Positions 138-57,500 of a stretch of DNA of 64,000 nucleotides are shown one piece after another. Both the position numbers and the translations under genes were made by a program. Under the pieces are notes generated by a model, which made no database searches, was not told the origin of the DNA, and saw nothing but the letters and a program-made list of their open reading frames with translations. This DNA is from Mytilus trossulus (taxonomy: Eukaryota). The stretch is from NCBI RefSeq assembly GCF_036588685.1, contig NC_086386.1:40486001-40550000 (forward strand), read 5' to 3'. The first letter of the stretch is position 1; each line of letters begins with the position of its first letter.

Positions 138-2769
138 TTCACAAAGAATAAAGCTTTCGGTGGCCATGTGTTACCTTCCCTCGTCAGTTTTAATCTAGCG
201 GCGTACTACAGTACATGATATATAAGGCAAGGAGATGTTATTGTTACAGATCAGCTCAATTATCTATAGTAAAGGATCCTACAAGTTAATGCAAGATGCA
301 GTCACAGAAAATAATTATATTTATAAGTACGTCTGAGTCAGTGACAACTCTACAACATATATATACAATTATTTATAGTTTCTTTGCCTATAGTTTATGT
401 TCAAATAACTTGAACTCTTATAGTTCAATATATTAGATAATTTCTACTCATTATGTAATCGTAATTGTATATTCAATGTATAATTGGTGCTCCTGTAACG
501 CATTTACGGCGTCTGAGTTTGTTAAATATAGTAAAGAGCTTTGCTCATTGTTGAAGGCCGTACAGTGATCTATAGCTGTTAATGTCTGTGTCAGTTGGTC
601 TCTTGTGGTGAGTTGTCTCATTGGCAATCATATCATATCTTCTTTTTTATATCAATAAAATTAGATACTGCAGCATTTATGTATACCTGTTGAATAGCTT
701 TTATCTGTTGAATTATTTGAAATGCATCTGAAATGTCATAAAGACTATTCATTTGAGAGAATACTATGATCATCTCCTCGCTTATGTTTTGATTTTCAAA
801 CAAATCATTCAATCTGGTTTTTTTATAGTGTTCATCTCTTTCTATGGCATAGTTAGTAAAAAAAAAAATCATTTTTCAATTTGAATAACTTCATTAAATA
901 TATTATTTGTCATCAACAAATTTGCTGCAGATAGTTTTGATCCCACAGTGATTGTTTTACAAACACGCACATACAAGCTATTTTTCACTTTGTGAATTCA
1001 AATATAAAATAAATAAACTTCCTTCTTATGCCTAATTTAAATTCAAATTTGTTAAAAAATTTAGTCGTTTACTTAAACTTTTGGTTTTGTGAACATTTCT
1101 TTTATTTAGACAGACATGTTTAACTTTGTTGTTCATATATATTTTAGATAATTTGGAAGATCTGCTTTGCAAATGTATACTATTAATGTATGTTAAAATT
1201 GTTAATATTTTTAAATTTAAAACGCGGGGCTCGCTAAGTTTTCAAAATATTTAAAATTTGACTTCCGAGATTTGATAAATATGGTATTGGACGAGATTTT
1301 TGTCGTGGAATATGTTTCTCTCATGATTTTTAGCCAATATGCAGACAATCTTAACCATTTTTGCGATCGATCTGCAAATATGAAGCAAAAGTAGTTACAA
1401 ACTTAAATTCAGGGAAACACATCAAAACTAAGAGAAGAACTACGACACAACGGAAAAACACCACTAAATTGCAACACACAAAGAAACGATCTATAAAATA
1501 ACAATGACCATTTTCCTGACATGGTACAGGACATTTTAAGAAAAAAAAGGGGGGTTGACCCTGGTTTTGTGACTAACCAAACCTCCCGTTTGTATGTCAA
1601 TGTTAAATATAACATTAAAATGACAAAATTATATGAAAGGTCTACGATACAAATATATTGGAGAACATACATAACAGAGAAATTAAGCCAATAGTAGTAT
1701 ACCGCTGTTCAAAATTCATAAATCGATAGAGTAAAAACAAATCCGGGTTATAAACTTTAACTGAGGGAAACACATAAATAAAAGCTGTCAAAAGGTACAA
1801 AGGTAAGGTTATATGCCTGGGATAAGAAAAAAATTCTCAGTGTTTAGAATAATTCATACTTTTTCAAACTGAAAATTTATAAGAATGAATATATAATAGT
1901 TATACATGTTTACACCGAAATCCAAAAAAAAAGGGTTTCTGTTGAAAGCAATAAAACTTGACGTCTTTATCGGATATCAACCAATGGAAAACTAAAATAA
2001 ACCAAACCACAAGTCCATTAAATAAAAATAATAAACAGGTCAGGAAAAAGTAAAGTCACAAACAGTCTGCACTCCGAGGGAAATTCAAACGGAAAGCCCT
2101 TAATCAAATGGCAAAATCAAATGATAAAACACACCAAACGCATGGACAACAAATATCATATTCCCAACTTGGATAGGCATTTTTAAATGTAGAAAAATGG
2201 TGGATTGAACCTGATTTTAAAGCGCTAAACCGCTCACGTGTAGTACGACGGAATAAATCGAGTAATGATTAAAAACATTACGGTAACTAATATCCGGGTC
2301 TTTATGGTTTTGTTGATTAAATCATAGTTATAGTAAACTCTAATAGACGTCACTTACACACAGACTTCAAAGAGAAACTTTCACATTACAGTTTGCTCAA
2401 TATGAAAGTGGTGCACATGATACAGAAGACAAGTACAAATTATTTAACACATACATTTTCACAAAAGTAGTGTTATTTTTCCTGAAATGTTTTTTTTAAA
2501 GAAATATTTGATGCATTTCATAAAATATATTCGAAAAATACCAACGGGACATTTAAACCAATTTATTGAAATTGTATCTTGAACAGTTCACAAACCCACC
2601 CTACTTTCTCCTTGAATGCATGGCACTTGTCTACAAAACATACTCTCAAACAATGGATTTTAAATTCATGGTTAAAAGCTTTGATTCAAGTGGTCACTTT
2701 GTCCGTTCATTATCACTTGTATTATCTTCGACAAGTGTTCATCGGAGTTCTATTTAAATACATGTATGT

Positions 2770-3575: not shown

Positions 3576-6119
3576 ATTGTAACACTTTACAACTATCAAC
3601 TCTGAATGCAGGTAATAAAGCTGCAAGTAACACCCCTCATGTGTATAAATACTTTACAAAACTAAGCTATTTTGGTGTTTCACGTGTATCTGGAACTTTT
3701 TTGAAATTTCAAGTAAAGGCATGTAGGTCCGCACTTGTTCTCCTGTCAGTTGCTAGTGATTTGTTGTCTTCTGACTTCTACGAAATATTCTATGGAGGAG
3801 GAGGGCCCACCTGGACATATGTATCTCGAAACTATGGCTCGAACGAAGCACAATTCAATACGCGAGAGATATTCGATTGTAATAATATGTTATCACTGTG
3901 GCTGAGCTGGAAAAATGGTCAACTCAAAAGTGGAACGGGTTCGATTCTGGGACAGGAAATAATCTTTGAATGGGATGATCCAAATCCTTTAACCATAAAA
4001 GGCATAGGAGTAATGTCGGCATATGGACAAAATGCTACATGGATAATATCTTCTGGAGGTAATTTAAGGCAACACATTATAATTTATAATATTCTTCTAA
4101 CATTGTGACAGATATTTCTCTCTCAGATATATATTTTGTCTCAAATTTAGCCCACATCTGTTAGATCTGTAAAATTGTGTTAAAACATTTTTGTTTCTCC
4201 TTCAGCGGGATTTAAACCCTTGCCTCTCTACAAGGACATGCATTACTTGACTTACAAAAGCTATGATTTTATAGAGCCAAGTTGAAGTATTCTAGGCATT
4301 AAACACGGTGTAAAAGGTAAAATAACAAAATTTCTGAACTCCCAGGAAAGTTCAAAAAGGAAAGTCCCTATCAGATGGCAAAATTAAAAGTTCAAGGACA
4401 TCAAACGAATGAATAACAAATGTCATTTTCCTGACTTGTTTCAGGCATTTTCTTATTTTAAAAAAATGTGGATTGAACCTGGTTTTATCGCTATCAAAAC
4501 ATCTCACTTGTATGACATTCGTTGTGGGTTGTCGAGATATATCCAATGCCTGGGTTTAAATCCCGCTGAGGGAGGACAAAGTATTATTTAATGTATTTGA
4601 AGCATCGAATTATTAGCAAGTTATATTCTAACATTCCGTGTTATGCAATAAAAAAATGTTTTAAAATACCATTTATTTTAAGGTCCACTAGCTGTCCAAT
4701 TTGTGTTCACCAACTTGACTCAAATTTTCATTTTTGATTTATTACAATGTAAAACATTTATCCAGATTATAAATAGTCTAAAATAATTAACAGGGCATGA
4801 GCTCGAGAATATGCAGCTTCGTTTTGTGTGTATTTTAGTATTGACGCCATCTAATTAATTATCGAGTTGACTTCCAAATACCTCCTATGGTCATATAAGC
4901 GATATAAATATAAATATTGATATCACTAGATAGGAAACTCGTGGAATTGGATTTTTCTAGTTTTGTTCAATTTCATATCATACATTTAAAATATATCTTA
5001 ATCGTCGGTCTACCATATATCAAAATTATTTATTGGATTGAACCTGTAAATCAAATGATTTACCTTTGTTTCACTTTCAATGTTGAAACTGCAAGTGAAT
5101 AGTTCATCATCAATTTATCATGTTTATCGTGACTTATTTTAACATTATTGGACCATACTTACAGCGAATTGTTAAAATACTATATCACTATCATAAATGA
5201 TTAAACAAAACGATTTTTTTTTAGATTTTTTATATATCTCGTAGAAAATGCACCTTAAACATGTAAAGGAAAAGTATGAATATTTTACTTGCATTAAGTA
5301 TTTGTATTTTTTAACAGTAGGAAATTATTTTAGTAATTTATGTTTCTCAAAATAGGAATATTCAAAGTTTATTGCTTGACGTCTATAACTCATTTTAATA
5401 ATCCTCATAAAATTTATACTTCAAGAAGTTCATTTCATACAACTTTTTTTTCTTATGGCGAATAGACGAGTTATTTGATTCCGTCGACACATGCTGTATG
5501 CAAGCAACGTATACTCACTATTAGAAACGTAAATGTTGTTTGCCTTAATTTCGTACAAATTTTAATTTTGTAATAAAACTCAATACAATTATTGGAATGA
5601 GGTGATCGATATTGTTTCTTTTTATTAATTGTGTTGCTTGCTGACGAACATGTATATATGTATGCCTATAAAAAAATTGAGTATTTATTCGTATACCGTC
5701 AAGAATACAGAAAAGAGTTTTAAACAAATGCAGTTTGATAAGATACCACAAAACTCTCAGATTTAATTACTGTTTGCTTTTTTAAAAGTACTTAACAAAA
5801 CAATGAACTAATACAATAGATGATATAGTGGCCAACTTTTGAAGTGTGATAAACTTTTTAAAACAAATTTTTGATATTTTCAGGTATCGAAGACAAAGGA
5901 ATTTTTTGTGGATCTGCAAGACAATCTCTAACCAATACAGGTGTTACCACGTACGGCCATTCATTATTTAGTTGTGCCATATCATGTATTTTCAATGTTT
6001 GCGCTGGTTTTGATTACAACAGTAAGATACAGAAATGCCATATTGTAGACGAAAAGGAATTTCTAACAAGCGCAAATGACCGTGACTCCGTAATGTTTAC
6101 TAAATGTTTATCTATTTAG
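3576..6119 (+). CDS. Secreted Methyltransf_FA (FAMeT-like) + PAN/Apple domain protein, paralogue A (5'-partial; exons 3576-4058, 5884-6119)
   Basis: Exon 2 is bounded by ttcag|attgt and ggag|gtaatt (483 nt, phase 1-1). It encodes FQVKACRSALVLLS...FYEIFYGGGG...DC...LWLSWKNG...WDDPNPL, a Methyltransf_FA-like pattern. Exon 3 (cag|gtatc...TAG) encodes a 6-Cys PAN/Apple module (FC..CAISCIFNVCAGFDYN..KC..KC). Splice sites match paralogues B and C. No signal-peptide exon found in the window. Confidence 0.85.
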
Positions 6120-7202
6120 GCAAAAAGTAATTCATGATTTCAAGATATTTCATATTTAGACAACCAACCTTTATATTACCGCAGATCCTATCGATGTTTA
6201 TAAGATAATTAATTGAAAAAAGTATCACTGTTCATGGTTATAGAATAATCATTATCGGAACGTACAAGGCATTCAACTTTGTCCTCGAAAAATGTTAGGC
6301 AATATCACGCTCATCCTCTCTCGTTATGACGACACAAACAAGCCAAAAAAAGTGACGTTCCCATGATACGGCATAATTTCACAGTTTTTAAATGTATAAA
6401 ATCATAGAACCCCAAAAAAAGTATAACTACTGTACTGTTTAATTGTGTAGTTATCTGTTTCTGAATGAAAAATCAATTTGGAAAGTCCATAATCAAATGG
6501 CAAAATCAAATAACAAAAAGCATCAAAAACAATTGGACAAGAACTGTCATTTCCCTGACTTGGTACAGGCATTTTCAAATGTAGAAAATGGTGGATTAAA
6601 CCTAGTTCTATAGCGCTAAACCTCACACTTTAATGACAGTTTCATCAAATTCCATGTAATATTGTTATTCAAATTGTATGCTCAACACTATCATAAACGC
6701 CTCAGGTTTGGCTAGCCACATGACCAGGTTCAATCCACCATTGTTTTCTTCAAATTTCCTGTACCAAGTCAGGAGAATGGCAGTTTATATCCTATAGTTC
6801 GTTATGTGTGCTTGCCTTGTCGTTTGTTTTTTGTTACAATTCAGTGATTCTGTTGTAGTCGACGTGTTCCCCCTGTTTTGGTTTGTAACACGTATTTGAT
6901 TTCTCTCAATATAACATGTGAACAGCGATATATCGCTTTTGCCTATATTTACCATACAACAAAGTAAAGATATTAGAAAAATATAATTTAAAATCTTTCA
7001 CACATTTGAAAAGTGAATTTCAGAAAATTTAAGACTTAAAACAAAATGTTATTTATTTTTTTTTTAAAACAAAAAATACCGAACTCCAAGGAATATTGTT
7101 AAGGTAAATAGCAAATGAAAAAAACTCAGACATATCAAGGGAATGATTAATAACTGCCATTTGGAAAATAGTGGTTTAACTCTGGTTTGACAGCTTATGT
7201 AA

Positions 7203-11794: not shown

Positions 11795-12640
11795 CAATAA
11801 AGACAACAGTACTTTACCGCTGTTCAAAATTCATAAATCGATTGAGTAAAATCAAATCAGGGTTAAAAACTAAAACTGAGGGAAATACATAAAGTATAAG
11901 AGAAGACCTACGACACAACAAAAACACAACTTTAAAATGTAACACACACAGAAACGAAGTAGAAGAAAAATATGGTCATTTTCCTGACTAGGTAAATGAC
12001 ATTTATTTAAAATAAATAATGTGTTGAACCTGGTTTTGTGGCATGCCAAACCTTCCGCCTTTGTGGCAATGTTAGATATGATTTTGAAATGACAACACTA
12101 AATGATAGGACCACAATACAAATAAATGGGAGAAAATATATTGTTATCAAAAGTACCAGGATTATAATTTTATACGCCAGACGCGCGTTTCGTCTACATA
12201 AGACTCATCAGTGACGCTCAGATCAAAATAGTTAAAAAGCCAAACAAATACAAAGTTGAAGAGCATTGAGGACCCAAAATTCCAAAAAGTTGTGCCAAAT
12301 ACGGCTAAGGTCAGAGGAACACACGAATAATAGCTAAAAAAAGGTTCCAGGTATAAGATTAAATACGCCAGACGCTCGTTTCGTCCACACACCAGTGACG
12401 CTCTGATGAAAAAAGTTCTGAAGCCAAAAAAGGTATATAGTTTAGCTTTGAGAACAAAAAAAATCGTAGAGTTGTGCCCAATGCGGCTAGGGTTTTCTGC
12501 GTGGGATAAGAACATCCTTATTATTTAGAAGAATTCATACTTTGCAAAAAGTATTTTTTTACAGATGACTATAAAATAGATATAAATGATAAAACCAGTG
12601 ACTTACTACAACATAAAAACGGATAGATAAATACCATGAA
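11795..12640 (-). mobile_element. Hammerhead-bearing interspersed repeat (Penelope terminal-repeat / non-autonomous retrozyme-like) with one intact and one degenerate hammerhead
   Basis: Colinear with 56517-57365 and 1410-1920 (caacagtagtataccgctgttcaaaa...ttcctgacttggtacagg...gggataagaa). Contains hammerheads at 12174-12217 and (degenerate) about 12364-12401. Boundaries approximate. Confidence 0.6.
12174..12217 (-). ncRNA. Type I minimal hammerhead ribozyme (intact core)
   Basis: Minus strand reads GCGUCA-CUGAUGA-GUCU(UAUGU)AGAC-GAAA-C(GCGC)G-UC^UGGCGU: CUGANGA and GAAA cores, GUC cleavage triplet, 4-bp stem II, stem I GCGUCA/UGGCGU, and a very short palindromic stem III. Confidence 0.85.
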
Positions 12641-13065: not shown

Positions 13066-13190
13066 AAATACATAAATACATAAATACATAAAAACATAAA
13101 AACATAAAAACATAAAAACATAAATACATACATACATATTAAGTACATGAACACATATGAAATAAATGAATACATGTTTAATACATGAAT
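13066..13190. repeat. ACATAAA(T/A)-type microsatellite
   Basis: Tandem acataaat/acataaaaa/acat units. Confidence 0.85.
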
Positions 13191-13472: not shown

Positions 13473-16400
13473 ATGGACCTAATTATTAACAAAAACATTC
13501 TGACACCGTTCATTGTGAATTTAATATTTTACATGATTAGTTTCAAAGGTAAGAATCATATCATTTTATTTTATTTTCAAATAATACATTTTTTGTATAA
13601 CCGAATTATATTGCCAATATATCCCTAAATAGTATAATTAAGGATGTTAGCTTTATTATTTTTGATTTTTTACAGATAGTTGGATATCCATGAAATGCCA
13701 TAAACACCATCTCCCTGCTTAACCAGACTGTTCTTTTCATTGTTTTATTTCATATAGTTTAAAAAAAAAATAAAAAAAATATTCCAAAATGCTATAAAAT
13801 ACATGAAATAGTTGTAATTAGTTTTCTTTATTTTCTTATAAAGCGTAGTGAGTATATATGTATTTCATATTTCCGGCAAAATATCTTTTTGAAATATTTT
13901 TTTTGTGCTGTATTTAGACCTCTCTACCACCAAATTTGTTTTACATGCGCACGTATTAAAATTGTTATCATACACAATCATAGGTTTGAACATTGTTCGC
14001 AATTTACACTTTTTTATATTTTTTAAATTTTGGAATTCTTTTATGTTTTTTCTCAGGTTTATATGATTCGTTCATCCTATTTCGACTCTTTCAAATTCAA
14101 GAGTCTATCCTTAATTGAGGTAAAATATATGGCATTCCAAATATCGTTTCGACACATAACCTGACTAAAAGGATATCAATTGTCGAAATCCGTACGAATG
14201 TTTGCACTTTATGTTTGTGGTAAACCATCTTTCCCGCTAGCTTTTTGCTTTCTGTATGGTATCAAATTGATATAAAGAACCATTTTGTTACAACAATTTA
14301 TTTGACCATCTTTAATTGCAGCCAACAGAGATTAAGAACATCAGTTGTTCGACCTGTTTGTGAAATGAGTTCTGTAAGAATACATGTGGAATATACGTTT
14401 TAACTTTCTTTAGACTTTTGGAAAATGTTTTTTTGTGCTGTATTTGTGCTATAACTTTTGGACTAGTTTAAATCTCGGTATATTTCTGTAATTTGTTCTT
14501 ACTTACTTTTGATTTTTTAACTCTATATGCTTACATTCCTATGTAAATTTTAAAACTGTTTGTATGCACATTGAACGACAAACTTATGTGACGTATACAA
14601 ATTTTATGACGTCAGACACTCAAGTCAATCCATGTGTTCGAAGATAGATGTTTTTGTGTTCTGTTTAATTGTCCCTTTTAAAATTGTTATTCGATGATGA
14701 CTGATGTACCCATATTTTGACTATTTTATTAATTGTGACTATTTATTTAACGCATCATGTTAATATAACGGAATTTGGTGAGACTGTTATTAAAGAGAGA
14801 GGGTTAGCGCTATAGAACCAGGTTTAATCCACCATTTTCTACATTTGAAAATGCCTGTACCAAGTCAGGAATATGACAGTTCTTGTCTATTCGTTTTTGA
14901 TGCGTTTTGTTATTTGATTTTGCCATGTGATTATGGACTTTCCGTATTGATTTTCCTCTGAGTTCAGTATTTTTGTGATTTTACTTTTTTTGTATTATGA
15001 CACCTCTCCTACAATTTTTTTTAAAGCATAACGCAGTTTTTATCCAACGCAATCACAAGTTTGAACGTTTGTTTTCTATTAAGACTAGATATATATATAG
15101 ATTAAAAAAATCTGCATTGATTATAATACGAAATTTATCCACTGGAGACCGATAGATTTTCAAATTTATGACGCGAGGCTTGCTGAGCGTTTGAAATAGT
15201 TAAATATAACTGGCGACAATTTTTATAAATCATATTCCACGACATTTGGTGTTGAAATAAGTTTCGCTAATGATTTTAAGCCGATATGCAGAAAATGTTA
15301 ACCCTTATATCCATCGATCTGCAAAAGAATATTTTTCTGAGGAGACGAATACAGTATAAAGTAATAATAAAAATTTGACTAATGAAGAACTAAAATGATA
15401 CGTACCACACGTTGATTTAAGAAAAATAATCAACGGGTTAAGAAAAGGATCAATCGGGTATAAATTATGGGAATTTTTTTATCGTGCAACTTATATTCTG
15501 GACTTAACGTTTTGGTTGCTTAAATAAATGAAATCGATTTAGCTTGAGCTCGGATTGCAAACAAGACCAATACTGAACTGTAACACAAAAAGAAATTTTA
15601 ACATTACAGTTCATTTAAGTATATCTAACAGGAGACCAGAACAAATGAAGTACACATTCATTTGTGAACGTGATATTTTAACAATTGAATTTTATTGCTA
15701 ATTATCGGATAAAAGCATTCAAATGACAGAGGAATTTAGCACAACTAGATTGAAAAGAATATTTTCACGTTTCAATGAATACTTAAAGTTTCATTAATCA
15801 CGTTCGAAATAAATCATTTCCTGATGTATCTTACGCTTTTAAGTTGTAATACAAAAAATAAAGAATCCAGTGTACCGTTATGATAAATGCAATACGTTTA
15901 TTAAGATCTCTATCAAAGAGTTTATTAAATATATAGAGATGAAAGAACACATTTCAAAATACATTTAATTCTTTAATGACATCTACATAAATTGCTGGTT
16001 GTAAAAAACTTTTTATCAAAGGTTTCTAATCCTTTATTCAAACACATTCTGTTATTGTAACTTTTCTAATTCTTCGTCAATTTATCCCTTTCTGCACCCG
16101 TTGTTTAAAAAAAATAATCAACGTGTGGTTGTTTTGATCTCAGTTTTTCGTTGGTTAAAATCCGAGTATGACGTTGAATTTTCTTGTTTTCCTCTGAATT
16201 TCCTATTGTGACGGCATGACAAAAGGCGACAGTGCCTGATGACGTCATATAAAAAGAACACATCTTTCTGCAGATCATTCGAAAAGAAGGAATACGTTTG
16301 CCTGCATATTATTAGAGAAACAGATTCTATCACCAAATCTCGTGTAATACGAAATTTAACCACTCTCGACAGTTAAGTTTCAAATATTTATAACGCTCGG

Positions 16401-19400
16401 CAAGACTCGCGATTTAAATTTGAAAATTTTACTGTCTCGAAGTATAAATATCGTATCACGCTTTATTACAACACATTAGTATATATTGAGCTAGTATAAC
16501 ATATCCGTTTGCAGACCAGAACAAAATTAATTATATTTATTTATATATTCATTTATGACGTTTGTTTTTAGTATTTGGCGTGCATTCGGCAAAGTTTTAT
16601 CGTAACTGATTTTTTACAAATTTAATGTTTACTAAGTGTTTGATCAGACTCAATTACCAAAAAATTTTTGTGAGAGACCTAATTTCTTGATTCAGCTTAA
16701 CACTATATTCAATAGAGTAACATAAAGGGCTCATATGTGGAAAAGGATCTATTAATCGATTGGAGCTCATGATATAAGCAGCGGTAATTAGAAGGATTCG
16801 AGTTCTTTAGACAATATTTACTGTGTTCAGCAAAAAGTAAATTCACAAAAATAATAATTGGAAGGTCCATAATTACATGATTAAATCAAATGACAAAACA
16901 CATCAAAAACGAATGGCTAAGAACTGTCATATTCTCGACTTGGTACAAGGATTTTCAAATGTAGAAATGGTGGATTAAACCTGGTTTTAAAGCGATGAAC
17001 CTCTTACTTTGATGACAGTCTCATCAAATTCCGTTATACTTACAATGATGCTTGAACTAAACAGACAAAATAAATAAAATAGTCAAAATATGGGTACTGC
17101 CGTCATCCTCGTGTAACAATTTAAAAGGACCAATTTAACAGAACACAAATATTTATTTACAATCACATTCGTAATGTTTCGTATTCGACGTCGTTTGTTA
17201 AAAAGTGCCAAGACGTAGCCAGTTTCTCTTTGAATGTATTTAAATGTCGTCTAGGTATTTTCTACCTGGTTTGTGTTATCTTAATTTAATCATAGAGAAC
17301 AATCACGAAATTCTAAGTTTAATTGCAAGTCAAGCCAATCAGAGTATACCAACTATGCATGTGTAGTCCTCCTTCAAAATTTAATTGGGGAAAGTATCGT
17401 CAGATCACTGAAGTCATATTTGATCATATTGTAAACAATGATATTATGGGGAGAAGCTGAGGAAATATTCAAACAACTTTCATGTTAATAAATGCATGAA
17501 TTTTCTTGATGTCCGCATATATAATCAAAAATTAATTTAATTGGTAATTTCTAGAATACGAAATTAACATCCAGTACTCACGACTGTTTTGAGTTCCTAT
17601 TCCTCTATTCCTCTGGAGGCCTATGTTCCACAGTTCATAGACCGACCCGCTTCTCTCATAAAATGCACGTTTGCTTGTCTGCAAAACATACAGAGACAGC
17701 TGTACACTTAAACCTCAGATTTTAAATGTAAAGTTAAGCAGTCATTTGAACCGTTCATTGTCACTTCTATTATCTTTCTTAGACAAGTTTTCAGTGCATT
17801 TCCATTTAAATTCGTGCATGTATATCACTGTATGTAACATGTCATCTTGTGCTCTACCAAACTATTGTGGTCTACATAAAAATCATACAAGTTATATACA
17901 AGAACTTTTTGCCTTTCTTTTATTTATTTGATAATATTTTAAGTGAAACGATTCCACCTTCGCAGCTTTATTTTACTTTATTGCATTTTCAATTCGTTTT
18001 CTTATTATAATAGACTCATTACTTTTTTAAAATAAGATAACTTTCATGGATACCAGTAGTTGAAGTCATAAAACTTTGCTCAGTGCTTGGAGCACAAAAG
18101 TCATGCTCGAAACATGAAATCAAGCAGTTTGATTGGTTGATTTTGTAGTATGACTACAAAAAACTGATTCGAAAGTTTTATAACCGCACGGCCAGATTTT
18201 TTGGTTTGTATATTACACATACGAAGATGTGTTATAAGATCCAATGAGACAACTCTCCACCCAAGTCACAATTTGTAAACCATTGTCTTGATAAAAACTT
18301 GACAAATTAATATGTACTTCGTTGAACATTTAAATTCGTGGTCTACATCCGACCACGAAATCCACGTAAACTGTTATGACAGCAGTTATAATAAATCAGT
18401 CAGCAATATGTGTTTGTATGCTTTTTTTTGGTATAGCAATTATTTTACTCGTTTCAGATTGTAACACTTTACAACTATCAACTCTGAATCAAGGAAGAAA
18501 AGATGCAGAAACAAACCGTGATGTGTATAAATACTATACAAAACTTAGCTATTTTGGGGTTTCTCATGTATCTGGAACTTTTTTTAAATTTCAAGTTAAG
18601 TCATGTAGGGCTGCAGTTGTTCTCTTGTCAGTTGCAAGTGATTTAATGTCTCCAGACTTCTACGAAATATTCTATGGAGGAGGAGGGAATCGCTGGACAT
18701 ATTTATCTCGAAACTATGGCAGGAACGAGGCAGCATTCAATACACCAAATCTATTAGACTGTAATGATAGGGTTTCACTGTGGCTGAGCTGGGAAAATGG
18801 TCAACTCCAAAGTGGAACTGGTTCGATCCTGGGACAGAATAGAATGATGAATTGGAATGATCCATATCCCTTACCCATTAAAGGCATAGGAATCATGTCG
18901 GCATATGGACATAATGCTACATGGATAATTCCCTCTGGAGGTAATTTAAGTCTAAACGATATCTATTCCAAACGAAATGATATATATGATTAGTCTAAAC
19001 ATATGTCGACTTTATGATAGACATTCTCTTTCAGATAATCGTTTATTATACAGGACTACAATCATAATATAGGTACATAATTTTTTTTTAATTAGCCCAA
19101 AAATGTAAGATCTGAAAATCTGCGTTAACAAGTTTGGGGTTTATTCCTCCGTGGTATATCGATTTGAAACCGCTTATGTGCGAGGAACGTTATAACTCGA
19201 TTACCGAACGCTTTATTATTATATAACCAAGTTGGTAGAGTGTTTTATGCGCTGGACACATTGTTTGCAGAATTACCAAGATTTCTCAGATGCAGAGGTT
19301 TGAACCCCTCTGAGGGAAGAACAGATGAAGTATATTGTATTGAAATATTGAATTACTCGCAAGTAATATACTACCAATCAGTTTTCTGCATAAATCAAAA

Positions 19401-24500: not shown

Positions 24501-26613
24501 ATAAAAAAATGTTTTTCGGTAAAATGAATATGTTTATGAAACAAACCATTGCAAATAGTATTGATTTTGTTTAAATTTAATGTCTTCTTCACGTGCAAAA
24601 CAATTACAATACAAGATTATGAACTTTATTTAACTATAATCCTTGAAGCTTTTACACTATATTGCTCGTTAATGGAAGGTTAAAACATACAACTCTTGTT
24701 CAGGAACTCAATATTTACATTGTGAAGACTTGCAATGTTTCCGTTAAATTATAATTATAACTGAAAGAAACATGTTAGTTCACTGAGCTGTGACGTCATT
24801 AAAAAGTCAATATAAACATACATGTATATTCAATTGCATGTCTCATTTTGAGTTTATCGGGTATATAAGTCTAAATTAGTCATAGAATATGACTTTGAAA
24901 TGTTTGATTAGATGAATGTAAAATTGCCTTATAAACAATCGGACAAATTTAATTTTATAAATTTACTGTTTGCAAAAGTATGCTTTATTCGAAGTGATAA
25001 GGATTTTCTTGTCCCATACCTTGATCACCTTATTTGGCTTATATTTTTTTTTTAATTTTCGGTCCGCATTGATCTTATAGTTAACTAATTACATATTACG
25101 TGGCTCTGTACCTATTCATCCTGTCTTTTTTTTTCTGCTGGATTTTTTTTATTTTTTTTATTTTTGCATATATGCCTTTATGTGTTTCTTTCTTACATGT
25201 TTGTTTGTTTTATAGGAATTAAGATCATTATACAATGTTGACTGCTGTATCCCAATTTTTGACATTTTTTTATATTGTGTCAGTTTTGTTTTGTTCACAA
25301 ATCGTTATGAATATAATGGAATTCTATGTGACTGTCATACAAGTGAGAGGTTAGCTTGTTAAAACAAACAGGTTTAATTCACCACTTTCTACATAAAATA
25401 ATGTCAGGAGTATGACAGCTGTAATCTATTTGTTTGATATGTTTGAGTTATTGATTTTGCCATTCGTGTACGGATTTGTCGTCTTGAAATTTCTTCTTTG
25501 CAGTTCAGTATTTTTGTTATTCTAATTTCTCAAATGAACCACACACTTTAGAAAAATGACTTTTTACCTTTCCAAAAAGTGTTCTTGTTGGGTTTTTTTC
25601 ATAAAACTATGCAATGTAACTTCGTCCTGTTTGTTGTATACTTCCTATCTAACCTAGTAATAGACATTTGCGGAAACTAGGTCTTTACCTAGGATTACAC
25701 TTTAGACTTACGATTACAGGTGTGAAAAACAAAGGGTCATCTCAAAATGCAAAAACAAACCAACATTACATGAACAAAATAGCAGTTGGTGTCTTCCATA
25801 TACATAAATAAAGATGTAAGCAACACGTTAAATTTCATGTGTCCGAAGCGCTTTTCTGGAATTACCATAAGGACCGCACAAAGCCGAATATTTTAAGACA
25901 AGGATTTATAAGCACAGAATGTGTAGATAGATATATGATATATATTATCAGCCGGGGAAATAAGCTTTCCCCGCGAAACAAGGTACTTTTAATGCAATGG
26001 TTAGTATACGAAAACCAGCAAAAAATTGTTCAGATGATTCTCTAATGCACGATTGCAACTTTGTACCCGCAACTGTTGCGTTGTCGATTTAAATAGATTG
26101 TGGTTTTTTTCAACAATTTCTTCTGGCCGGCTACACTTTTGATTTTTATATCACAAACATAATAATTCTCTTTACAACAAAATAAAAGAGAGAATGTATG
26201 TCTTAGCATAAACATGCTAACATGCTCCATGGTTTATTGCACCTTTCCTAAAACAAAGTATCTATCAACTGTAACGACAATTGCGATATGTTGTGTGTCT
26301 CATGTTAAATTTAATTCTAAAATAATGTAAGTTGTAACACATTGTTGCAAATATATTTGAAAAAAAAATCATTGTTCAACTGCAGAAAAACATCCCTATC
26401 GTTACATTGTTTTGGATCGACGGTTTATTTTTACACTTTGAGAAAGCCCAAGATTTAAATGCTACTTGTGAGTGTAATTGTAATCCTAATCGTAGGTGTA
26501 TGACAGTTTTCCGCAAATGTCTAATAGAAACAGTCCATTTGAGTTATTTCCCATTGGTCGTATAATTATCATTCACAGATAATTGATTATACGTTATATT
26601 TCTATTATAAATA

Positions 26614-29529: not shown

Positions 29530-29775
29530 CTATCAAATTTCCTTTTTTGTTATATCAAATTAATAAATGGTTATATAAATAATCATTATCTTTTCTATCA
29601 AATTTATAATATGTTATATCAAGTTATCATACTATATTTCATCAAATTGAAAATATGTTATATCAAATAAATATTTTTTATATCAAATTAATAATTTGTA
29701 ATATCAAATTAATAATTTGTTATATCAAATTAATGATATGTTATATCAAATTAATTATTTGTTATATCAAATTGT
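29530..29775. repeat. ~21-bp minisatellite (ttatatcaaattaataatttg)n
   Basis: About 10 degenerate copies; two more near 28795-28840. Confidence 0.85.
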
Positions 29776-35692: not shown

Positions 35693-36289
35693 TGAAGGAT
35701 TCTTTTTTCTTATTTCCTTTTAGAGCGTTCTGAATGAATTATGCTTCATATGAGTACCTAATCAAATCGGTCAGTAGGGTGCACAATAAGTATACATTGG
35801 ATACCAACAGTCTGTTAAAATATCAATCTTCAAAACTCAACACATATGTTGTCGATCGAAAAAACAATCAGTTTGATAATATAATCCTCATTATATTTTC
35901 TGGTAGATTCAGTGTGGTTGTTCACAATATATGACCTATTGTAGCACAAAAACAAAAACAAATGTATTTATTTTTTATTTTTTATAGAAAAAAGCTCTAT
36001 TAAATGAGTTGTAATGTAAAGCGTGGAAAAGTCAAAAGTCTTCATGCTTCTGCAAAAATGCAAAGAGTGTGATAGAAGATTGATTATTTATAAGCAGTAG
36101 ATATTTCTATATTTTAAAATCCGTATCTGGTTAACATCACTAGTATAATATATATCATCACAATATTTTTGAAGCCCATCTTCATTTGTACAAAGAACAG
36201 TAGTCAGTTTTAGAAAGATCTTGAAACGAGCATTTTGATCACCTAGCTATGTATCGTTCTTTATCTTGAGTTGAGTGAAGTTTTAGTAT

Positions 36290-36810
36290 CCAGTATGTAC
36301 ATTTTTTTCGTTTTTCTTTGATGTTCATACAAAAAGAAAGAGCAGAATTGTGATGTTGTAAAAGAATATGCAGGGTTATAACTTGTTTTATTTATTCCAA
36401 GCTCTGTTTTTAGACATTGCAAATAATTGTTTTCAAATAAAAAGACAATTATATCGTAAGCTTTATCTGCTGGAACCGCGTAATATCTCTCATGCAAACA
36501 GTATAAAACATCCACAACCTCCGGATTCTTGAAAGGGTTATTTACTCTTGTGCTCATAGTACATCGTAGTTTCTGAATGCGCTTCTGAATGACTTTGATC
36601 TATTTAGACAAAGTGTCCAGTTCTGGTTCGTCTTGTTCGCGCTTTACCAGTTTTCTTGCAACCTCAACTGCGTCCATCAAAACATGAAGTTCTTTTTCCA
36701 GTTGATGGGCTGGGGGATTTAATATTTTGATCCCTTGGCTAACAACTCATTAAGTTGGTTTAAGTCCTCTCTACATTGGTAACGATGCCAAGGGAGCCAG
36801 TAATAACATA
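36290..36810 (-). mobile_element. Degenerate Penelope-like retroelement fragment (region upstream of the RT core)
   Basis: Minus strand reads NPFKNPEVVDVLYCLHERYYAVPADKAYDIIVF...YLQCLKTELGI (VPADKA.N.IVF-type motif), preceded by a frameshifted KGSKY..P..INWKKN-like segment. Confidence 0.6.
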
Positions 36811-39085: not shown

Positions 39086-39167
39086 AAATCGGTATAGTTA
39101 TTTGCCCAAATCCAGATTTGCAATTTAGTGGTCATAGTTATCAAACGTACCAGGATTATAATTTAGT

Positions 39168-39211
39168 ACACTAGACGCGCGTTTCGTCTACATAAAACTC
39201 ATCAGTGACGC
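39168..39211 (-). ncRNA. Type I minimal hammerhead ribozyme (core intact, stem I weakened)
   Basis: Minus strand reads GCGUCA-CUGAUGA-GUUU(UAUGU)AGAC-GAAA-CGCGCG-UC^UAGUGU. Same flanking repeat (gtaccaggattataattt) as the 12174 copy. Confidence 0.7.
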
Positions 39212-42200
39212 TCATATCAAAATATTTATAAATATTGGTTAAACTGTTTATTCAAATAAAGAAAACTTAGTGATTTATTATGTTATTCCAAATATTTAAA
39301 CAAATATAATTTTTTTCAAATCCTTATTTTCAAATGAGCCATTTAAGGGGAGATTGCTTTTTTAGTAAAAAAAAATAATCTGAACTATAAGGGAAATAAA
39401 TGTTTTCCTTGTAGCAAGAAAACGAGTTCGGCAACACCATTTTTTATTTTTATTTTCCTAAAACATATAATAAAACCTATCTATCTTATTTAAAATTCTA
39501 TCTCATAGAATTTTTTTATGCACACAAATGTGTTTTTTTCATGGACAATCTAACCAAAAGGCAACTTTCAACGAATCATAGCTTGAAAAATAGCACGGTG
39601 ACCGATACTTTTTATTATTTTTTTTGGAAAAAGCATAGTAAAATCTTCATTTAATTATGATCTACCTGAAAACAAAATATTTGATTTTATAAATCAGTAT
39701 TTTAAAAAAAGAAGAGGTAAGTCATTTATAACTGCGTCGTTCTTTAAATAAATAAATATGTTATGGATGGCAAATAATCATCTTTTTCATAAATTGCATC
39801 AACCTACAATTCGTAATCAAAACTAATACTTCGAGATGTTGAAATGAAATATCCGAGTGAGTGCATCACCAACGGAAACTAGACAGGACTTGTAAAACCA
39901 TTATAGATCAACCGTGTTCCCACACTGTCGTTCTAAACCAAAGACTTGAAAATTGGTATCTGTTGTTTCTCAGCTAAACAAGTACCATTTATCAGTACGA
40001 AAAATACTGTTATTTTGTGAATTAGCATGTTACAAAATCATGTTCAGCGTGTCGGCCGGGTGTTTATTGATATCCTATTATTTGTGTACTAGTTTTTATT
40101 ATGCATTTAATTTGCAACTGGACGTAACAGAGCCATTTATCAATCCCATGTATCAGACAAATACAATTTTGGAATAAATAACATTGTACATGCTATTTTA
40201 TCCAAGTGTTTAAATCAGTAAAAAATAAAAGTACTTAAGGACCGTCTTGTGAACAGATATAACCCTTAAAAAATAGTCAATCAAAATTGAACTGGGATGT
40301 AGTAACATGAAGGCAACAGTAGTTAAACGCTGTTCGAACATATGACCCGTATTTACGTAACTTTTTTTAATAATAATTATCATACATGCTTGAAAAAAAG
40401 CTTTGTGTGGCAAAACATTTCTTAAAATAAAATGAAAGATACTATAATTTTTTTAAATGGAACTAGGTTGTATTAATTACGTGCATCAGAAGTGCTATTC
40501 TGGACTTACCTTCATCATAAATGCTCAAACCAACAAATCAAAGTGCAAATCAATGTTAGTATAACGATTTGAACGCATAGGTCCTTGTTGGACTGAAATC
40601 AAACGTTAATAATAGAATTATATCTTTATCTCTAGTCTGTTATTTTTGCAAATATTTCTCATTGACAAGATATATCTTTTAAATTACATAAATTATCAAC
40701 AATGATTAAAAAAAATGATTCATATAGTTTAGTTACATTCGAAATACCAAGCCATTAATCTTTTGCATTTTATTCGTAGCAAAAAATCGCAAACAATATG
40801 ACAAAACTTATCAAGTGCGTACTGTAAGGATGGCATAGGTAGGTATGTTTTGTATACTATGGTTGAAATCTGTGTTGGATACCTTCACGGGGATGGTAAG
40901 GTATGGCAAAGTTTAGTAGGATAAATATAATTTATCAAGCAAAATCAAACATACTTTAACCAGGTGTACCAGATCTAATACAACGTTAAATATGTACTCA
41001 ACAGAATACAAGACCAAATTTAACTTTTGTCTTGACTGAAGTGGTAACAATTAAGAAAAGCAGTTTAATCATTCAACACATATATATATCTAGCAGGACA
41101 ATTTGTTGAAACACATGGTGTTATTTTTATGACACAAGAATACTCAATTATTCAAATGAATAGCATCAACATCAAATGTAACCGCTACTATAACATGTTT
41201 TGTATAAACAATCATTATCGGTTAAAATGTATTACGTTGCCATGAAGACGATTAAATCAATCTAGCAAAGCAGAACCCAATATCAACTTATGAATAACAA
41301 GGTTCATGTGATACATTAAGACAAAAGTTTTTTTACCTAGTATGTGTATATATATTTCATTGTGTTCATGACAATCAATTGATTAAGCATACACAAACAA
41401 ATATTTTCTTAAAGCTGGACCTTTTAAAAAAGAAAGGGTTTGTTTTGTAGATTGTTGTTGGTCCTATAGTCGTTTATATGATATTGAATATCCCTTTGGT
41501 ATATTCCACCTCTTTTCCTACAATCTTTGGGATGTATCGTTTGCTAATATCATTTTTTTTTTTTTTTATTAAATCGAATTTTCATTTGTAATCAATTTAT
41601 TAAAATGATAAATTGAAAGAAAAGATCTTTCATTTACAGCTGATATATTATTGAGCGATCTCATTGTATCTGAAGGACGAATTTTGGGTCTTCTTCTGTA
41701 TTTTAGATTTATCGTGAAAATGTAAACACACTTTCACGTAGTCTAAACTTCAATCAAATACGAGTATTGCATGGTTTCAAAACTTTCTGCAGTTCAAGTT
41801 ATAACTTATGTCATCAGCTTAGTTTTTCCAATTTTTATTTAATTATAACATTGCTGAAAAAAGTTTTTTTCTTTAATGCTGTAATATTTGATTAAACCTT
41901 GTATGCTAAACACATGTTTCTATAGGGTTCAAGTTACGTTTCTTTAACATATTGACTACTTGTGATCGTTGTTAACTAGTATGTAATTACTCCTTGTAAT
42001 ACTAGTACTAAATTTTAAATAAAACGTAATGCCAGTAAACACACATTCGTTTTATTCTTTCAAATAGCATATATATAATTAGTCAAAACTGAAAATGGCA
42101 TCTGTGGAAATTCCTTTTACAAAGCAATTATGTAATAGCGAAAATATAACAATATACCTCGTTAAGAAATTCTATAATTGCTTTTTAAATTTATGTTATG

Positions 42201-51543: not shown

Positions 51544-54500
51544 CTAATATTTCTTTCTTTCTGTAATTGTGTTTTCATCTGCTCTTTCGTCAATAATTGA
51601 TCGGTTGTAGCTGTCTTTGAACATAAACATAAGTGGGATGCAGATACATATCACACTTAATAGGCACCAATTCTCCCAATCTGTTCCTGAAAAACACAAT
51701 TTTTACACAATTTTTGACAATTCTACCTAAGGAAAAGATTATCTTAGCTGTATTCGGCAATTTATTTAGGAACTTTGGTCCTCAATGCTCTTCCACTTCG
51801 TACTTTATTTGAAATGTTTATACTTTTTTGGATTCGAGCGCCACTGACGAGTCTTTTGTAGACGAAACGCGCGTCTTGCGTAAATACAAAATTTTAATTC
51901 TGGTATTTATAATGAGTTTATTTGAGAAATCAAAATACACAGTAATATGCAGTTACTGTATCAGAATCATTTTTTCACGTTATCGATTTTATGTTACTTT
52001 TACAGATCTTGACTTTCCTATGGGTTTGTTTGTTTTCTAGTACTGATGTCAATTATCATAGGACCAAGGGTTAACTGATGTATTGAAATATAGTCACAGC
52101 GAGTTCTCTAATCGGGCAGTATTATTTAGCTATGCAGGATGAATAAATACTCATCTACGTCAAGCATAATATTGATATTAAATGGTTATGTCTCCATGGT
52201 AAGATCGTGTAATTCAGGAAAAATATTTTAATTGTTTACCTATACTTGGAATCATCTGTAGTAGCAAAAATATAAAACTACCAACATTACACATGGTTGT
52301 TAGAAGCACGTTAGTTAGACCTTCTGACACTGGATAACACACTTCACAGGCCATTTCAAAATATAATGGTGTCGCTGCTTGTAAGCATATCGTTCCAAGA
52401 ATAATGGCAGCATACAAGGATACTGTAAAATATAGAAGGCAGTAAACTATTAGAAAAGGACATTTAAATCAGAGTTTCAACTTTATATCAACATAACCAC
52501 GATCGAAATCGACCTTTCATTTTGTCTTAAGGATGTTTGCTAGACAAAAATAAACCACTGGTTTACCCATGTAGTAAAATTACATTTATTTTCCCCACTA
52601 ATCCCTACAGTTTTCATAATTTTATTTACATAGAGTTTGAAAACCCATTTTCGAAAATGCTATAGAGTCCTTGTTAAGAAAAAGGGTTCCAATGTCAAAT
52701 GAATGAAAAGTCTAGAGAAAATTATTTCCCGATATATTTTCAATGGTTTATTTCCAAAACACTGACACGGACCTTTCCTTTTTTCTGCATTCAGTTCCAT
52801 TATTGATATGCTATCAATTTAAAACAGTATTTATAAAGCTTGTTATTTTTAAACAGAGTATCAAATGTCCTTAAATATAAACAGTACTCACCTCTTTAAA
52901 AATGTATTATTTATATCAGGAAATTGAATTTACATGTTTTTCGTTTGTTGTTTTGTCTTTAAACAGGACGTTAATGTTATGGTTTAAATTGTTTCACGTT
53001 TTTTCAAGTCGGGTCTTTTTTACTGACTATACGAGGTTTTTTTAAAAGCAGGTTTCAACATTCTCCCAAATAAAACAAAATGGAGGGATTGCATTCTAGT
53101 TATCTTTCTCGCTGTTTATATTCTTCGTGTTATCCGGGGGCATATAGAGGAATTCTTCAATGTCTACACTTGACATAAAACGGATATTTGATTAATGTAG
53201 TAATTGTTTTATTAACTTAGAAGGACGAAACATGTTTCCAACCAGGAACTTATTTGATTTTACCTGTCGAATTCGGAAGGATGTCGTTGACTAGAAGTGT
53301 AAACCATAAAAATCCAATGAAACTTCCAAAATAAATACATATCAGGAACATGCGCAAATGTTTGTTGAACATATCAGCAAATCTAAAAATAATTGAAATA
53401 ATTTTCAAATGCAGTAATTCAGAACTATATATTATATACATGATACAATACAAGTCTTTCATTTGGCAAAATATATCTTGTTATTTTTTTTTCTTGTGGC
53501 TTCTCGTTTAAGGAATGTTTGAATGTTATCCTAGTATTTAGTTTTGAACGTCATTGGAAAGATAAAAAGAAAACGTTTACCCGTTCAAATATCTTAATTT
53601 GCCAGTGTCAGTCCAAATTTCCCCGATCGTTATCCCGGAGAGCCTCGATTACAATACCTACCTATTGTGTATATTGTTAACTCGTTTGCCTCTTGAACAT
53701 GGATGAAATATTGACACTGGCTTAGATTATATGACAATGGGAAGGAACAAAACGTTACATCAAATCAAAGAACATGTATATCTGTCACAAACGCTCTTCA
53801 AAGAATCAGTCGAAAATTAAAATTTCTTCTAAATTGTTTCTTCCCTGAAAACGCATCCACTGAAACACAAAACTATCTTCCGTATCGTCTACGTAATCCT
53901 GACGAAATTGTCAGAACAAGGCCCGTCAAAAGTTATCTCATATATTTTATATCTACATTTGTATGATTTTTTCTTTGTATACGTAAGATTTCCTAATATT
54001 CAATAGTTGTAACAAGACTTTAGTTTTGGATGCGTTTCCGAATAAAAAGAAATTATATCTGACACTCAACAACACAGCTATAGTCAAATGTGCAATGTTT
54101 ATGAGAAATGCACACGGGAAATAACTATAAAGAACAGAAACTATTGAACATTTTCGATAAAAGTACTTTTATTCTACGTTATAGTGAGTACTGCGGTCTA
54201 TATTTATTTGTGGGTTTTTCTTCTGATTTTGATGATTTTTCCATATTCTATTGGCCCGAGACCACAATTAATTCCTCTATCATTTCTTTATAACGTTTTG
54301 TCGCATTAAAAAAAATTTGCCTATTCTTTTTGTCTAATTTTTTGTGTGTAGTAGTGTACAGTACAAGTCCAAAAATATATGCAATTTTCAGAAAAATTGC
54401 ATGATTACATCATACAAATTTGGCCAATACACATCCATACCCCTATAGGCAAGTCAAGAGATGTTCCGAAAAGTGTAAATATAACCTTTTTGCACCTGGC

Positions 54501-57500
54501 CTAATCATTCTTTCCTTATTAAAATCAGTTAAAATAAAACATCCATAAGTTTAGTTCAGCTCTCTTCTTTCATTTCCACCCCAGAAAAGTTAACAAATGA
54601 ATGAGAAAGGGAAAGAAAAAAAATATAGAAAAATACACTATAATTAAAGGGAACTATATTCGTGAACAACGAAAAGCGGGGTCATTAATTGTGGTCTTGG
54701 GCCTATTAGGGTCCAAAAACTTGACCAATTCCAATATAACTTGACATGATTTAAGCTTAGTGTATTATGAGTCAGTTTTCAAAGTTTCAAAGCCATGTGA
54801 TATATATTATAAAAAATGTGGCATTTTTTATACCTCAACTTTGGTTGCTGAATTGTGACGTTGAAATAGAAAAATTTCAACTTTCAAATTTTGGCTTCAA
54901 AAATTCCCCAAAAACACCAAATTGCACTTTTTTATGTCACAATGTATAAGATATTATCTATTCAAAGTAAATGATAGCATACTTAAGGTATGAGACTTAT
55001 AAAAATTTGACAAAAGTTAATTTTATATGTTCTAATGCCAAAAAATAGAGGTTTTCAAATGAAGCGAGCCCTTATATGAAATGTAATATTTTCCACTTAC
55101 AACAATTTTCTGAAGTTGTTAAGTTAAAACAAAACATTTAACATATCATAAATGTTATTTTCATGTAAATATAAGTTTCAAATAGCATAACACATGAGTT
55201 TTATATGGTCTTAAGCAATGTCAAGCTTAAAATAACAAGTTGTCAATTTAGGACGTTCCCTATATTTCCATATTTAATTGCATATAAATGATATTGGAGA
55301 TGGAAATATGCTTATTTTTGCCCAAATCCTTGCTGAGATATGATCAAATATGAAGCCTGAATGTAACAAGACTGTTGCTTTTCACCATATATGTAGACAG
55401 TATGGTCTGATGCAAAGTTTTTTCAATTTACAGTTTAAAACCTGCATGAAATTTCAGTCTTAAAATGCCAACATTTTAACCACCAGCCATCCAACAGAAG
55501 AAAATAAAGGTATTCTGTGAAACAGACAAGTTTAAACAACCAGTAATAAGTGCTTTTGATATAGATTCAACGCAATCTGTTTAAAGAAATACTATTTTTA
55601 AGTGCATAGAACTTCATATTTCACTTGCTTCGTACGGACCGCTAGACCTAGACTATTAAAACAGCACATTTTGCACTCTCTTTATGCTTTTATCCACTTT
55701 TCTTTGTGTTCAGAGTTTAAAAATGAGTAAAACACATGAAATAAATACCACAAACACAAATAGATATCAGAAAAAAAATGTCAGAGAAAAATTAAGGATG
55801 CTGCTTTTGCAAAAATATTGAAAAAAGTGAAAAAGCTACTTTTTGGGCATATCAGCTGAAAAGTGACTTTTTTTTTTTACAAATTTCTATCAAATAAAAG
55901 TGGAAATCATTTCATCTCATATAGTTTGGCAAATCAATACCAATAGATCATTCAGAGAAGCTGTCAAAGTATAAATTCAAAATTTGCTGAAATGCACCTC
56001 TTAGGCCCGAGACCACAATTAATTCCTCTATCATTTCTTTATAACGTTTTGTCGCATTAAACAATTTTGCCTATTCTTTTTGTCTAATTTTGTGTGTGTG
56101 TAGTGTACAGTACAAGTCCAAAAATATATGCAATTTTCAGAAAAATTGCATGATTACATCATACAAATTTGGCCAATACACATCCATACCCCTATAGGCA
56201 AGTCAAGAGATGTTCCGAAAAGTGTAAATATAACCTTTTTGCACCTGGCCCAATTATTCTTTCCTTATCAGTTAAAATAAAACATCCAAAAGTTTATTTC
56301 AGCTCTATTCTTTCATTTCCACCCCAGAAAAGTTAAGAAATGAATGAGAAAGGGAAAGAAAAAAAATATAGAAAAAATACACTATAATTAAAGGGAACTA
56401 TATTCATGAACAACGAAAAGCGGGGTCATTAATTGTGGTCTTGGGCCTATTATTGGATTGTACTCGCACTTAAACATAAATTTTTTTTCGCTTTACAAAT
56501 GTTATTGTAACAAATTAAGGCAACAGTAGTATACCGCTGTTCAAAACTCATAAATCCATGGACAAAAAAAAAATCGGGGTAACAAACTAAAACCGAGGAA
56601 AACGCATTAAATATAAGAGGAGAACAACGACACAACACCGAAACGCAATACACACAGAAACGGACCAAGCATCAGACAAATCTCCACGAGAATAACAAAT
56701 ATAACATGAAAACCAAATACATGAATTTTGGGATAGACAAGTACCGTGCCACGTCTTATCTCAATATCTCAAATATAAGCGAAAACACAAACGACTCAAC
56801 GTTAAAATGCAACACACACAGAAACGAACAATAATATAACAATGGCCATCTTCCTGACTTGGTACAGGACACTTTTAAAGGGGAATAAAAGTGGTGGGTT
56901 GAACCTGGTTTTGTGGCATACCAAACCTCGCACTTTAATGGCAAAGTTAAATATAACATTGAAATGACAACCTTATATTACAGGACTACAATACAAATAA
57001 ATAGGAGAACATATTAGACAAAGAAGAACATGATTAATAGATAACATAAAGCATCAGGTTTAAAATTCAATACGCCAAAAACGCGCCTTGTCCACACAAG
57101 ACTCACCAGTGACGCCCAGGTATAAAAGATCGAAAGTGAAAAAAGTACAAAGTTGTACAGCACTGAAGATCAAAAGTTGATAAGGTTTCGCCAAATACGG
57201 CATTGTTTTTATGCCTGGGATAAGAACATTCTTATTATATCGAACAATTCATGCTATTGCAAACAGTAAATTTTATCAAATGAATATGAAAGAGATATAC
57301 ATAAAGAAACTGAAGTATTAACTAACTACAGAAAACTAAACCCGAATACATAACGTCCAGATAGAAAATCGTCATACACATTTTATAATTATTTTCCTTC
57401 TCATCCTTTTGTTTCATAGTTTGTTGCCATCCTTACAATTTACTTAAGGTGAACAAACTTAGACATTATGCAGAAATCTAATGAACCATTACTTATAATT

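Follow-up and report, generated by a model that had tools for sequence, protein, structure and literature searches.

What is a self-cleaving RNA motif doing in the spacer between two mussel genes, and what put it there? The motif lies on the minus strand of the window, the 64,000-nt stretch of Mytilus trossulus DNA analyzed here. An earlier note had assigned it to a type I hammerhead ribozyme in a non-coding repeat, at home among the retrozymes and Penelope-like elements (PLEs) of mussels, and this assignment holds as far as tested. Mussel retrozymes have a published precedent. In M. galloprovincialis, 350-390-bp repeats (represented by a 353-nt construct) contain some 5000 type I hammerheads, which belong to two families; a cloned repeat self-cleaves at ~0.1/min, and ligation by RtcB as well as abundant circles, in vitro and in tissues, have been described (PMC7229834). 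PLEs or LINEs were named there just as candidate helpers, and the identity of the autonomous element behind the movement of animal retrozymes was left open in PMC7229834 and PMC7761336. A 2026 preprint, in which animal retrozymes are proposed to derive from PLEs as non-autonomous forms with many solo monomers, asks for the mechanism (Li, Clavereau and Pollet 2026, 10.64898/2026.07.22.740005).

We are highly confident that the hammerhead is already known and its repeat family in print, and a single copy is on its own ordinary; the value of the locus lies in a by-product, a link to Naiads. We posit, as a reasonably probable reading, that the motif is a canonical hammerhead in a truncated copy of the likely Mytilus retrozyme, likely retrotransposed by Naiads via a stem-loop in the unit. 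The features on which this reading draws are collected in Table 1.

Table 1. Retrozyme-family, repeat A and Naiad-like features of the window (unit positions are counted from the predicted cut)
Feature	Position	Strand	Remarks
Type I hammerhead motif, canonical animal layout	12174..12217	minus	predicted cut 12180/12179
Young 5'-truncated retrozyme copy, 172 nt	12140..12311	minus	unit about -132 to +41 from cut
Tail of ~40 nt, from cut to the 3' end common to dispersed copies	12140..12179	minus	
Old diverged family copy, 71-77% identity	12329..12609	minus	directly upstream of young copy in RNA sense
Abundant flanking repeat A	11796..12136	minus	junction with old copy is the likely insertion site of the young copy
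Second young copy, 5' truncation at about -59	39134..39232	minus	two helix I mismatches
Second-subfamily copy	51724..51908	plus	one helix I mismatch
Old copy, decayed core	57036..57302	minus	joined to repeat A (56513-57030), no young insertion
Family fragment without hammerhead	1797..1919	minus	
Family fragment without hammerhead	24953..25076	plus	
Near-identical (by eye) to the Naiad_Mgal consensus 3' end	14770..14989	plus	
Decayed Naiad reverse-transcriptase piece, DKA motif	36261..36599	minus	by eye against published Naiads

The motif is surrounded by animal sequence rich in A and T, in which three Methyltransf_FA exons, one PAN exon and a B-box protein are encoded. Mollusc and gill metagenomes are among the public runs that contain the stretch, and together with the Naiad_Mgal-like 3' end at 14770-14989 they point to a Mytilus mussel. 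Three paralogous genes (3509-6126, 18370-20262 and 44735-47340) each combine a Methyltransf_FA exon with a second common exon, shown to be PAN for the middle one, and the motif falls between two of these genes, one of them the Methyltransf_FA gene at 18370. The earlier note had put the motif about 1.25 kb upstream of, and divergent from, one paralogue; a candidate first exon, ATG-led and GT-ended, does lie at 13473-13549, 1.26 kb off and in the opposite orientation. It may belong to the gene at 18370, but neither of the other two paralogues has a homologue of it, and we found no tie between the hammerhead and the neighboring gene. Elsewhere in the window, a single 579-aa frame at 32970-34709 (plus), which encodes B-box fingers and a likely C-terminal propeller, is presumably TRIM-like; an exon at 62147-62494 (minus) has a weak MFS_1 transporter match; and a 21-bp minisatellite (29580-29773), an 8-bp tandem run (13070-13140) and a 169-nt duplication at 99% identity (54351-56268) are also present.

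Layout and conservation of the hammerhead

Every element that the earlier note had named, from the stems through CUGAUGA, GAAA and the palindrome to the GUC triplet and the cut between 12180 and 12179, is present on the minus strand. Helix I has six pairs (GCGUCA/UGGCGU, two of them G-U) and is open; the core string CUGAUGA leads into helix II, with four pairs (GUCU/AGAC) closed by a UAUGU loop, followed by GAAA; helix III has two pairs and a GCGC loop within the palindrome ACGCGCGU and is followed by the GUC triplet. Three helices with an open helix I and the order CUGANGA/GAAA/NUH define a type I hammerhead. The "minimal" class to which the motif had been referred, however, does not fit. In minimal PLE hammerheads, helix III is absent or nearly so, helix II is long and helix I short, and position 10.1 is preceded by an extra base, whereas the 6/4/2-bp layout found here, without that base, is canonical in the terms of the same study (Cervera and de la Pena 2014, PMC4209133). 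What the motif has in common with the minimal PLE form is its type I topology, a palindromic helix III region and the possibility of dimerization. By its sequence, the motif belongs with the canonical type I hammerheads, and self-cleavage is predicted.

The Infernal search that had been proposed as a check gave a divided answer. In a 1.5-kb search, the Rfam model Hammerhead_1 (RF00163) matches the motif from end to end with an E-value of 5.5e-6, but its score of 33.0 bits is one bit below the gathering score of 34, which is why a scan of the whole 64-kb window at gathering scores comes back empty; the copy in the tandem contig L002 scores a similar 33.3 bits. A loose hammerhead descriptor picks out the motif and nothing else in the window; in 200 random windows drawn from a dinucleotide model, the mean was 0.06 sites, and 12 of these windows had one site. 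The 120-aa stop-to-stop frame that overlaps the motif has no Pfam match.

Constrained to the hammerhead form, an 86-nt segment folds at -6.7 kcal/mol against a minimum of -11.9 kcal/mol for the same nucleotides, and the hammerhead is thus not the predicted lowest-energy form of the isolated motif, whose 44-mer has a folding z-score of +0.85. Action as a dimer, which the earlier note had mentioned for minimal hammerheads, is feasible in silico for the palindromic motif (-31.5 kcal/mol) but may be unneeded, given that the cloned mussel repeat self-cleaved (PMC7229834). Over 12 copies of the family, 93.8% of the cells in the hammerhead pairing scheme are paired versus 21-49% in slid controls; eight of the 12 pairs vary on one side and none on both, and two-sided covariation among these copies is nil, no better than in a shuffle control. 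Within the repeat family, the hammerhead is the best-kept part, and in tandem it comes back once in every unit.

A young copy at a junction of repeats

The motif sits in a short, 5'-truncated copy. Positions 12137-12311 match the L002 tandem unit at 96% identity over 175 nt, half of the unit; no target-site duplication is visible around 12140-12311. On one side lies repeat A and on the other an old family copy whose hammerhead (12351-12424) has lost 7 nt across the core and helix II and has an altered loop 3. The pair of repeat A and old copy also occurs without the young copy, at 56513-57310, and the same joint is found in run X1; the young copy therefore likely came later. On this sequence comparison, it was likely inserted into the junction between repeat A and the old copy.

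Repeat A has an indirect relation to Naiads, in that its sister copy at 56847-56939 matches a Naiad-like 3' end (76% over 93 nt). Its copies have one end in common, on the GGCAACAG side (plus strand). Repeat A and retrozyme pieces form head-to-tail chains in one orientation at 11796-12609, 56513-57310 and 1394-1919, with joints close to a single site in repeat A; this could reflect an insertion hot spot or a PLE-style partial tandem.

A role of this locus as a source of circular RNA, suggested earlier, does not hold up: it is half a unit, and the core of the neighboring copy is deleted. It has one intact hammerhead rather than two consecutive ones and for that reason cannot release a monomer or a circle. 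If this copy were read through on the minus strand, one cut would be possible and no circularization would follow. We regard 12140-12311 as likely an inert, dead fragment.

The repeat family

The full unit of the family is seen in L002, a head-to-tail array with a 355-nt period, 38.6% GC and no coding sequence between units. Both of its units have a hammerhead match, the second with a core change. At the level of the family, the array thus shows the type I hammerheads in tandem units of 150-450 bp that mark a retrozyme, and its low GC content (38.6%) and the overlapping frame devoid of a Pfam match are retrozyme traits as well. The unit as a whole circle is predicted to be no more stable than shuffled sequences (z -0.67).

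Copy number and copy ends were mapped over the window, six outside contigs and two DNA runs. The outside contigs comprise five from a metagenome scan and L054 from a scan of prokaryote genomes. A model built from 12 copies finds five hammerhead-type copies in the window (four of the five were in its training set), and the motif at 12174-12217 is the only one of them with all helices intact. Among the copies, two young subfamilies and one old subfamily can be told apart. We saw no ORF flanking any family copy. A second-subfamily copy at L001:2093-2203 passes without a gap into the final 23 bases of repeat A; L001 also has a long coding stretch that is open.

Searches beyond the mussel returned next to nothing. 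Viral contigs gave no matches to the hammerhead and stem patterns and four to an 18-letter word, none homologous to the unit; phage records gave no match. Prokaryote genomes gave no match to the long pattern and 120 loci with a 16-letter word, of which one, L054, is a true family piece; a 25-letter match in this set (L021) was treated as chance. The L054 piece (L054:202-275, G001:C550), a retrozyme fragment with the common 3' end in a cyanobacterial genome bin, is likely mussel contamination; no further family copy was found in that bin. A sigma-70 promoter scan of the unit stayed at chance level, and a bacterial-type signal is in any case not apt for an animal.

The family is very probably the published Mytilus retrozyme (PMC7229834), with the caveat that the comparison was made by description, from host, size and the presence of two subfamilies. 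The two agree in a mussel host, type I hammerheads, unit length (355 nt here), low GC, two subfamilies, tandem arrangement and very high copy number. Unlike the Mytilus retrozyme as described there, 12140-12311 is half a unit, of the dispersed kind, and has a single intact ribozyme; neither a fixed 3' end nor a Naiad-type stem, as found in the window/L002 family, is mentioned in the portions of PMC7229834 consulted.

A common 3' end

Dispersed copies of the family mostly have one 3' end in common. Among 11 non-tandem copies, seven end +41 to +44 past the cut; of the other four, one aligns to +48 and three belong to the second subfamily, whose diverged tail the reference cannot score. The 5' ends that lie inside contigs vary from -30 to -252. 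The loci had been selected for the hammerhead pattern, without regard to where they end. Assembled contigs of public runs repeat the picture: at least 825 in X1, 446 in X2 and 33 in X19 part from the stretch at 12143 and go on as dissimilar sequence, with agreement before 12143 of just 0.44-0.46, whereas contigs that leave at 12311 continue as the unit does.

A fixed 3' end combined with variable 5' ends is the pattern expected of 5'-truncated retrotransposition from one start site, and it is what a Naiad-dependent element should show. Because each such copy spans the cleavage site, its template would have been a circle or an uncut multimer. Insertions of PLEs can be marked by an optional tail of 30-40 bp and by an inverted 5'-truncated partner; none of the copies seen extends clearly into the stem described below or has such a partner.

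A stem-loop in common with Naiads

A few bases past the common 3' end, the L002 unit encodes a GC-rich bulged stem-loop (L002:553-608, minus, within 548-612) with a predicted energy of -28.5 kcal/mol (z -2.7). A second copy in the same contig is degraded: it has seven changes within the stem and is predicted to be no more stable than shuffled sequences (z -0.95). These two copies, on one contig, are the evidence for the stem, and its comparison with Naiads was made by eye rather than by alignment.

The comparison begins with the 11-letter word CTGCTGGTGGA. The supplement of Craig et al. (2021, PMC8557442) contains it 11 times, in all 11 cases near the start of a Naiad consensus, against an expected count of about 0.05 in that file at even base use. 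The word was picked after the match had been noticed by eye; allowing for that, the chance for one entry is ~2e-8, again at even base use. In the Naiad entries, as in the unit, it is followed by a CCCCGAG-like word. Shorter words add five entries, for a total of 16 of 54 Naiad consensus sequences, both Mytilus ones included: nine of the 11 bivalve entries, three coral, three acorn-worm and one fish. The remaining 38 entries were probed with those exact words only. Across the Naiad entries, the outer and middle helices show, by eye, compensatory changes that keep the pairing, and most Naiad consensus sequences start a few bases before the stem, the very register in which retrozyme copies end. 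An inserted hairpin is optional in the Naiad 5' stem (Mytilus, Modiolus and Saccoglossus entries).

Terminal sequence and structure in common with Naiads can thus be claimed at the family level, from one contig and by eye. The family resembles Naiads in that its unit carries their 5'-end motif, with helices nested alike, and in that its copies are truncated at the 5' end and fixed at the 3' end; it differs from them in being a retrozyme unit without an ORF and with a canonical hammerhead, which Naiads are reported to lack (PMC8557442). Neither a 5' stem nor a non-autonomous mollusc partner of Naiads is described in the available parts of that paper. Two hammerhead core words match no bivalve Naiad consensus, and four motifs taken from the hammerhead and repeat A are absent from the Naiad supplement of PMC8557442; two nematode Naiad consensus sequences, by contrast, end in a hammerhead core.

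The stem has no Rfam match, and its assignment to a twister or HDV-like ribozyme was rejected as a misfit to the consensus features of these classes. The stem is absent from the window, both by pattern and upstream of four old or partial copies (p 0.09-0.87), since it belongs to a portion of the unit that the window lacks; further scans yielded no more copies.

Naiads themselves are present in the same genome, as judged by eye against published sequences. A Naiad-like 3' end gives 17 BLAST matches in the window (query included), with those at 6469-6663, 16860-17149, 28165-28476 and 50489-50629 among the 17, and eight of ten such 3' ends among the matches listed stop at the same T-rich end. The reverse-transcriptase piece at 36261-36599 found no relatives by Pfam, in viral contigs or by protein search. 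A second decayed Naiad-like reverse-transcriptase piece lies in opposite orientation at about 35230-35480 (plus), and the two may, by eye, reflect an inverted PLE arrangement. Sequence resemblance thus suggests that a Naiad_Mgal-like family is likely the helper family in this genome.

RNA evidence

Two RNA runs contain sequence of the family. The depth of the hammerhead relative to repeat A is 11.2 and 17.8 in RNA versus 14.7 and 11.6 in DNA, and no RNA enrichment of the hammerhead over repeat A is evident in these two RNA and two DNA runs. No RNA contigs cover the single-copy flanks, in itself weak evidence. The summed contig depth in X1 reaches 13.4 million at the motif versus 22-25 on single-copy flanks, a figure not to be read as a copy number.

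A model for mobilization and its alternatives

We posit that tandem arrays would be transcribed, cut by their hammerheads to ~355-nt monomers and ligated into circles, as reported for the Mytilus retrozyme (PMC7229834). Beginning ~48 nt past the cut, the unit is predicted to fold into the bulged stem-loop, whose match to Naiad 5' ends is seen directly. A Naiad protein would then bind this structure and nick AT-rich DNA, and reverse transcription would begin 4-8 nt upstream of the stem, a position inferred from the common 3' end and from the analogy with an anole PLE (Frangieh et al. 2024, PMC11167929). In that system, AT-rich DNA is nicked by a Poseidon protein, which initiates reverse transcription internally in the RNA, on a stem-loop that lies downstream of the hammerhead; the genomic ends of the element fall on the start sites of reverse transcription, and ribozyme cleavage is not needed for insertion (PMC11167929). 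The anole element differs in belonging to another PLE clade, in being autonomous and in having an AC-rich stem inside the ORF; mussel copies end just before their stem. Copying would proceed backward over the tail and past the cleavage site, with a ligated circle or an uncleaved multimer as template; a cut linear monomer is ruled out because it gives only ~43 nt. An early stop of copying would produce the end pattern that is observed, a fixed 3' end with variable 5' ends. We lean, if only somewhat, toward the view that the mussel retrozyme is a parasite of Naiads, in which a hammerhead is combined with a previously undescribed, covarying 5'-Naiad stem, conserved in Naiads of corals through fish, that sets the start of reverse transcription, and circularization brings the ribozyme and the remainder of the unit within reach of that start.

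The same retrozyme could carry the stem for other reasons, as a relic, an internal promoter or an RNA-stability element, and be copied by another PLE or a LINE. PLE promoters at the boundary of pLTR and 5'-UTR (PMC8557442) and the hammerhead-bearing PLEs of mussels, the helper candidates named in PMC7229834, speak for this possibility, which we consider unlikely though far from negligible. It is doubtful that the copy is instead the truncated 3' end of an autonomous hammerhead PLE, possibly of Naiad lineage, with L002 as its tandem junction or pLTR and the retrozyme as an offshoot. Such an element would explain why the fixed 3' end and 5' truncation resemble PLE ends, why old copies are joined twice in the window to a Naiad-related repeat and why two nematode Naiads end in a hammerhead core, and it has a parallel in Xenopus, where retrozymes match the pLTRs of PLEs (10.64898/2026.07.22.740005); yet no ORF flanks the copies seen, L002 runs from unit to unit without coding sequence, the two core words match no bivalve Naiad consensus and the layout is canonical rather than the minimal form of PLEs.

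A function for the host, in which the ribozyme was recruited to trim an antisense or divergent transcript and so regulate the neighboring Methyltransf_FA/PAN gene, strikes us as very improbable. The motif is the sole fully intact copy of five in the window and has a candidate first exon 1.26 kb away, but its 96% identity to a mobile unit explains its intactness by youth, no matching copy was seen at a comparable distance from the other paralogues and, for what this weak evidence is worth, no RNA contig was found on the single-copy flanks. That the motif matches the hammerhead consensus by chance is hardly credible: a score short of the Rfam gathering value, a fold that is not the lowest in energy and a single loose match in 12 of 200 random windows would allow it, but the E-value of 5.5e-6, conservation of the motif as the best-kept part of the family, its recurrence once per tandem unit and pairing of 93.8% versus 21-49% all argue against it.

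Implications for retrozymes and Naiads

In Xenopus, for which a PLE origin of retrozymes has been argued, 24 of 57 retrozyme families match known elements, with PLEs making up 21 of 22 (10.64898/2026.07.22.740005). That preprint, as far as its consulted text goes, covers vertebrates, three insects and a coral, with no mollusc and no RNA signal identified; it draws links to pLTRs in Xenopus and notes Naiads only as present in coral. The literature searched gives no account of the Naiad link, the stem or the fixed 3' end, which Repbase and the supplements of papers may contain.

With its position right at the 3' end of insertions, the stem provides three things: a named helper, a signal of 60 nt and a start site that can be predicted. 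It further suggests that Naiads have a conserved RNA element without an Rfam match. If the reading is true, both a helper and a cis-acting signal would be named for an animal retrozyme, and an RNA signal would be in hand for Naiads, the dominant retroelement of bivalve genomes.
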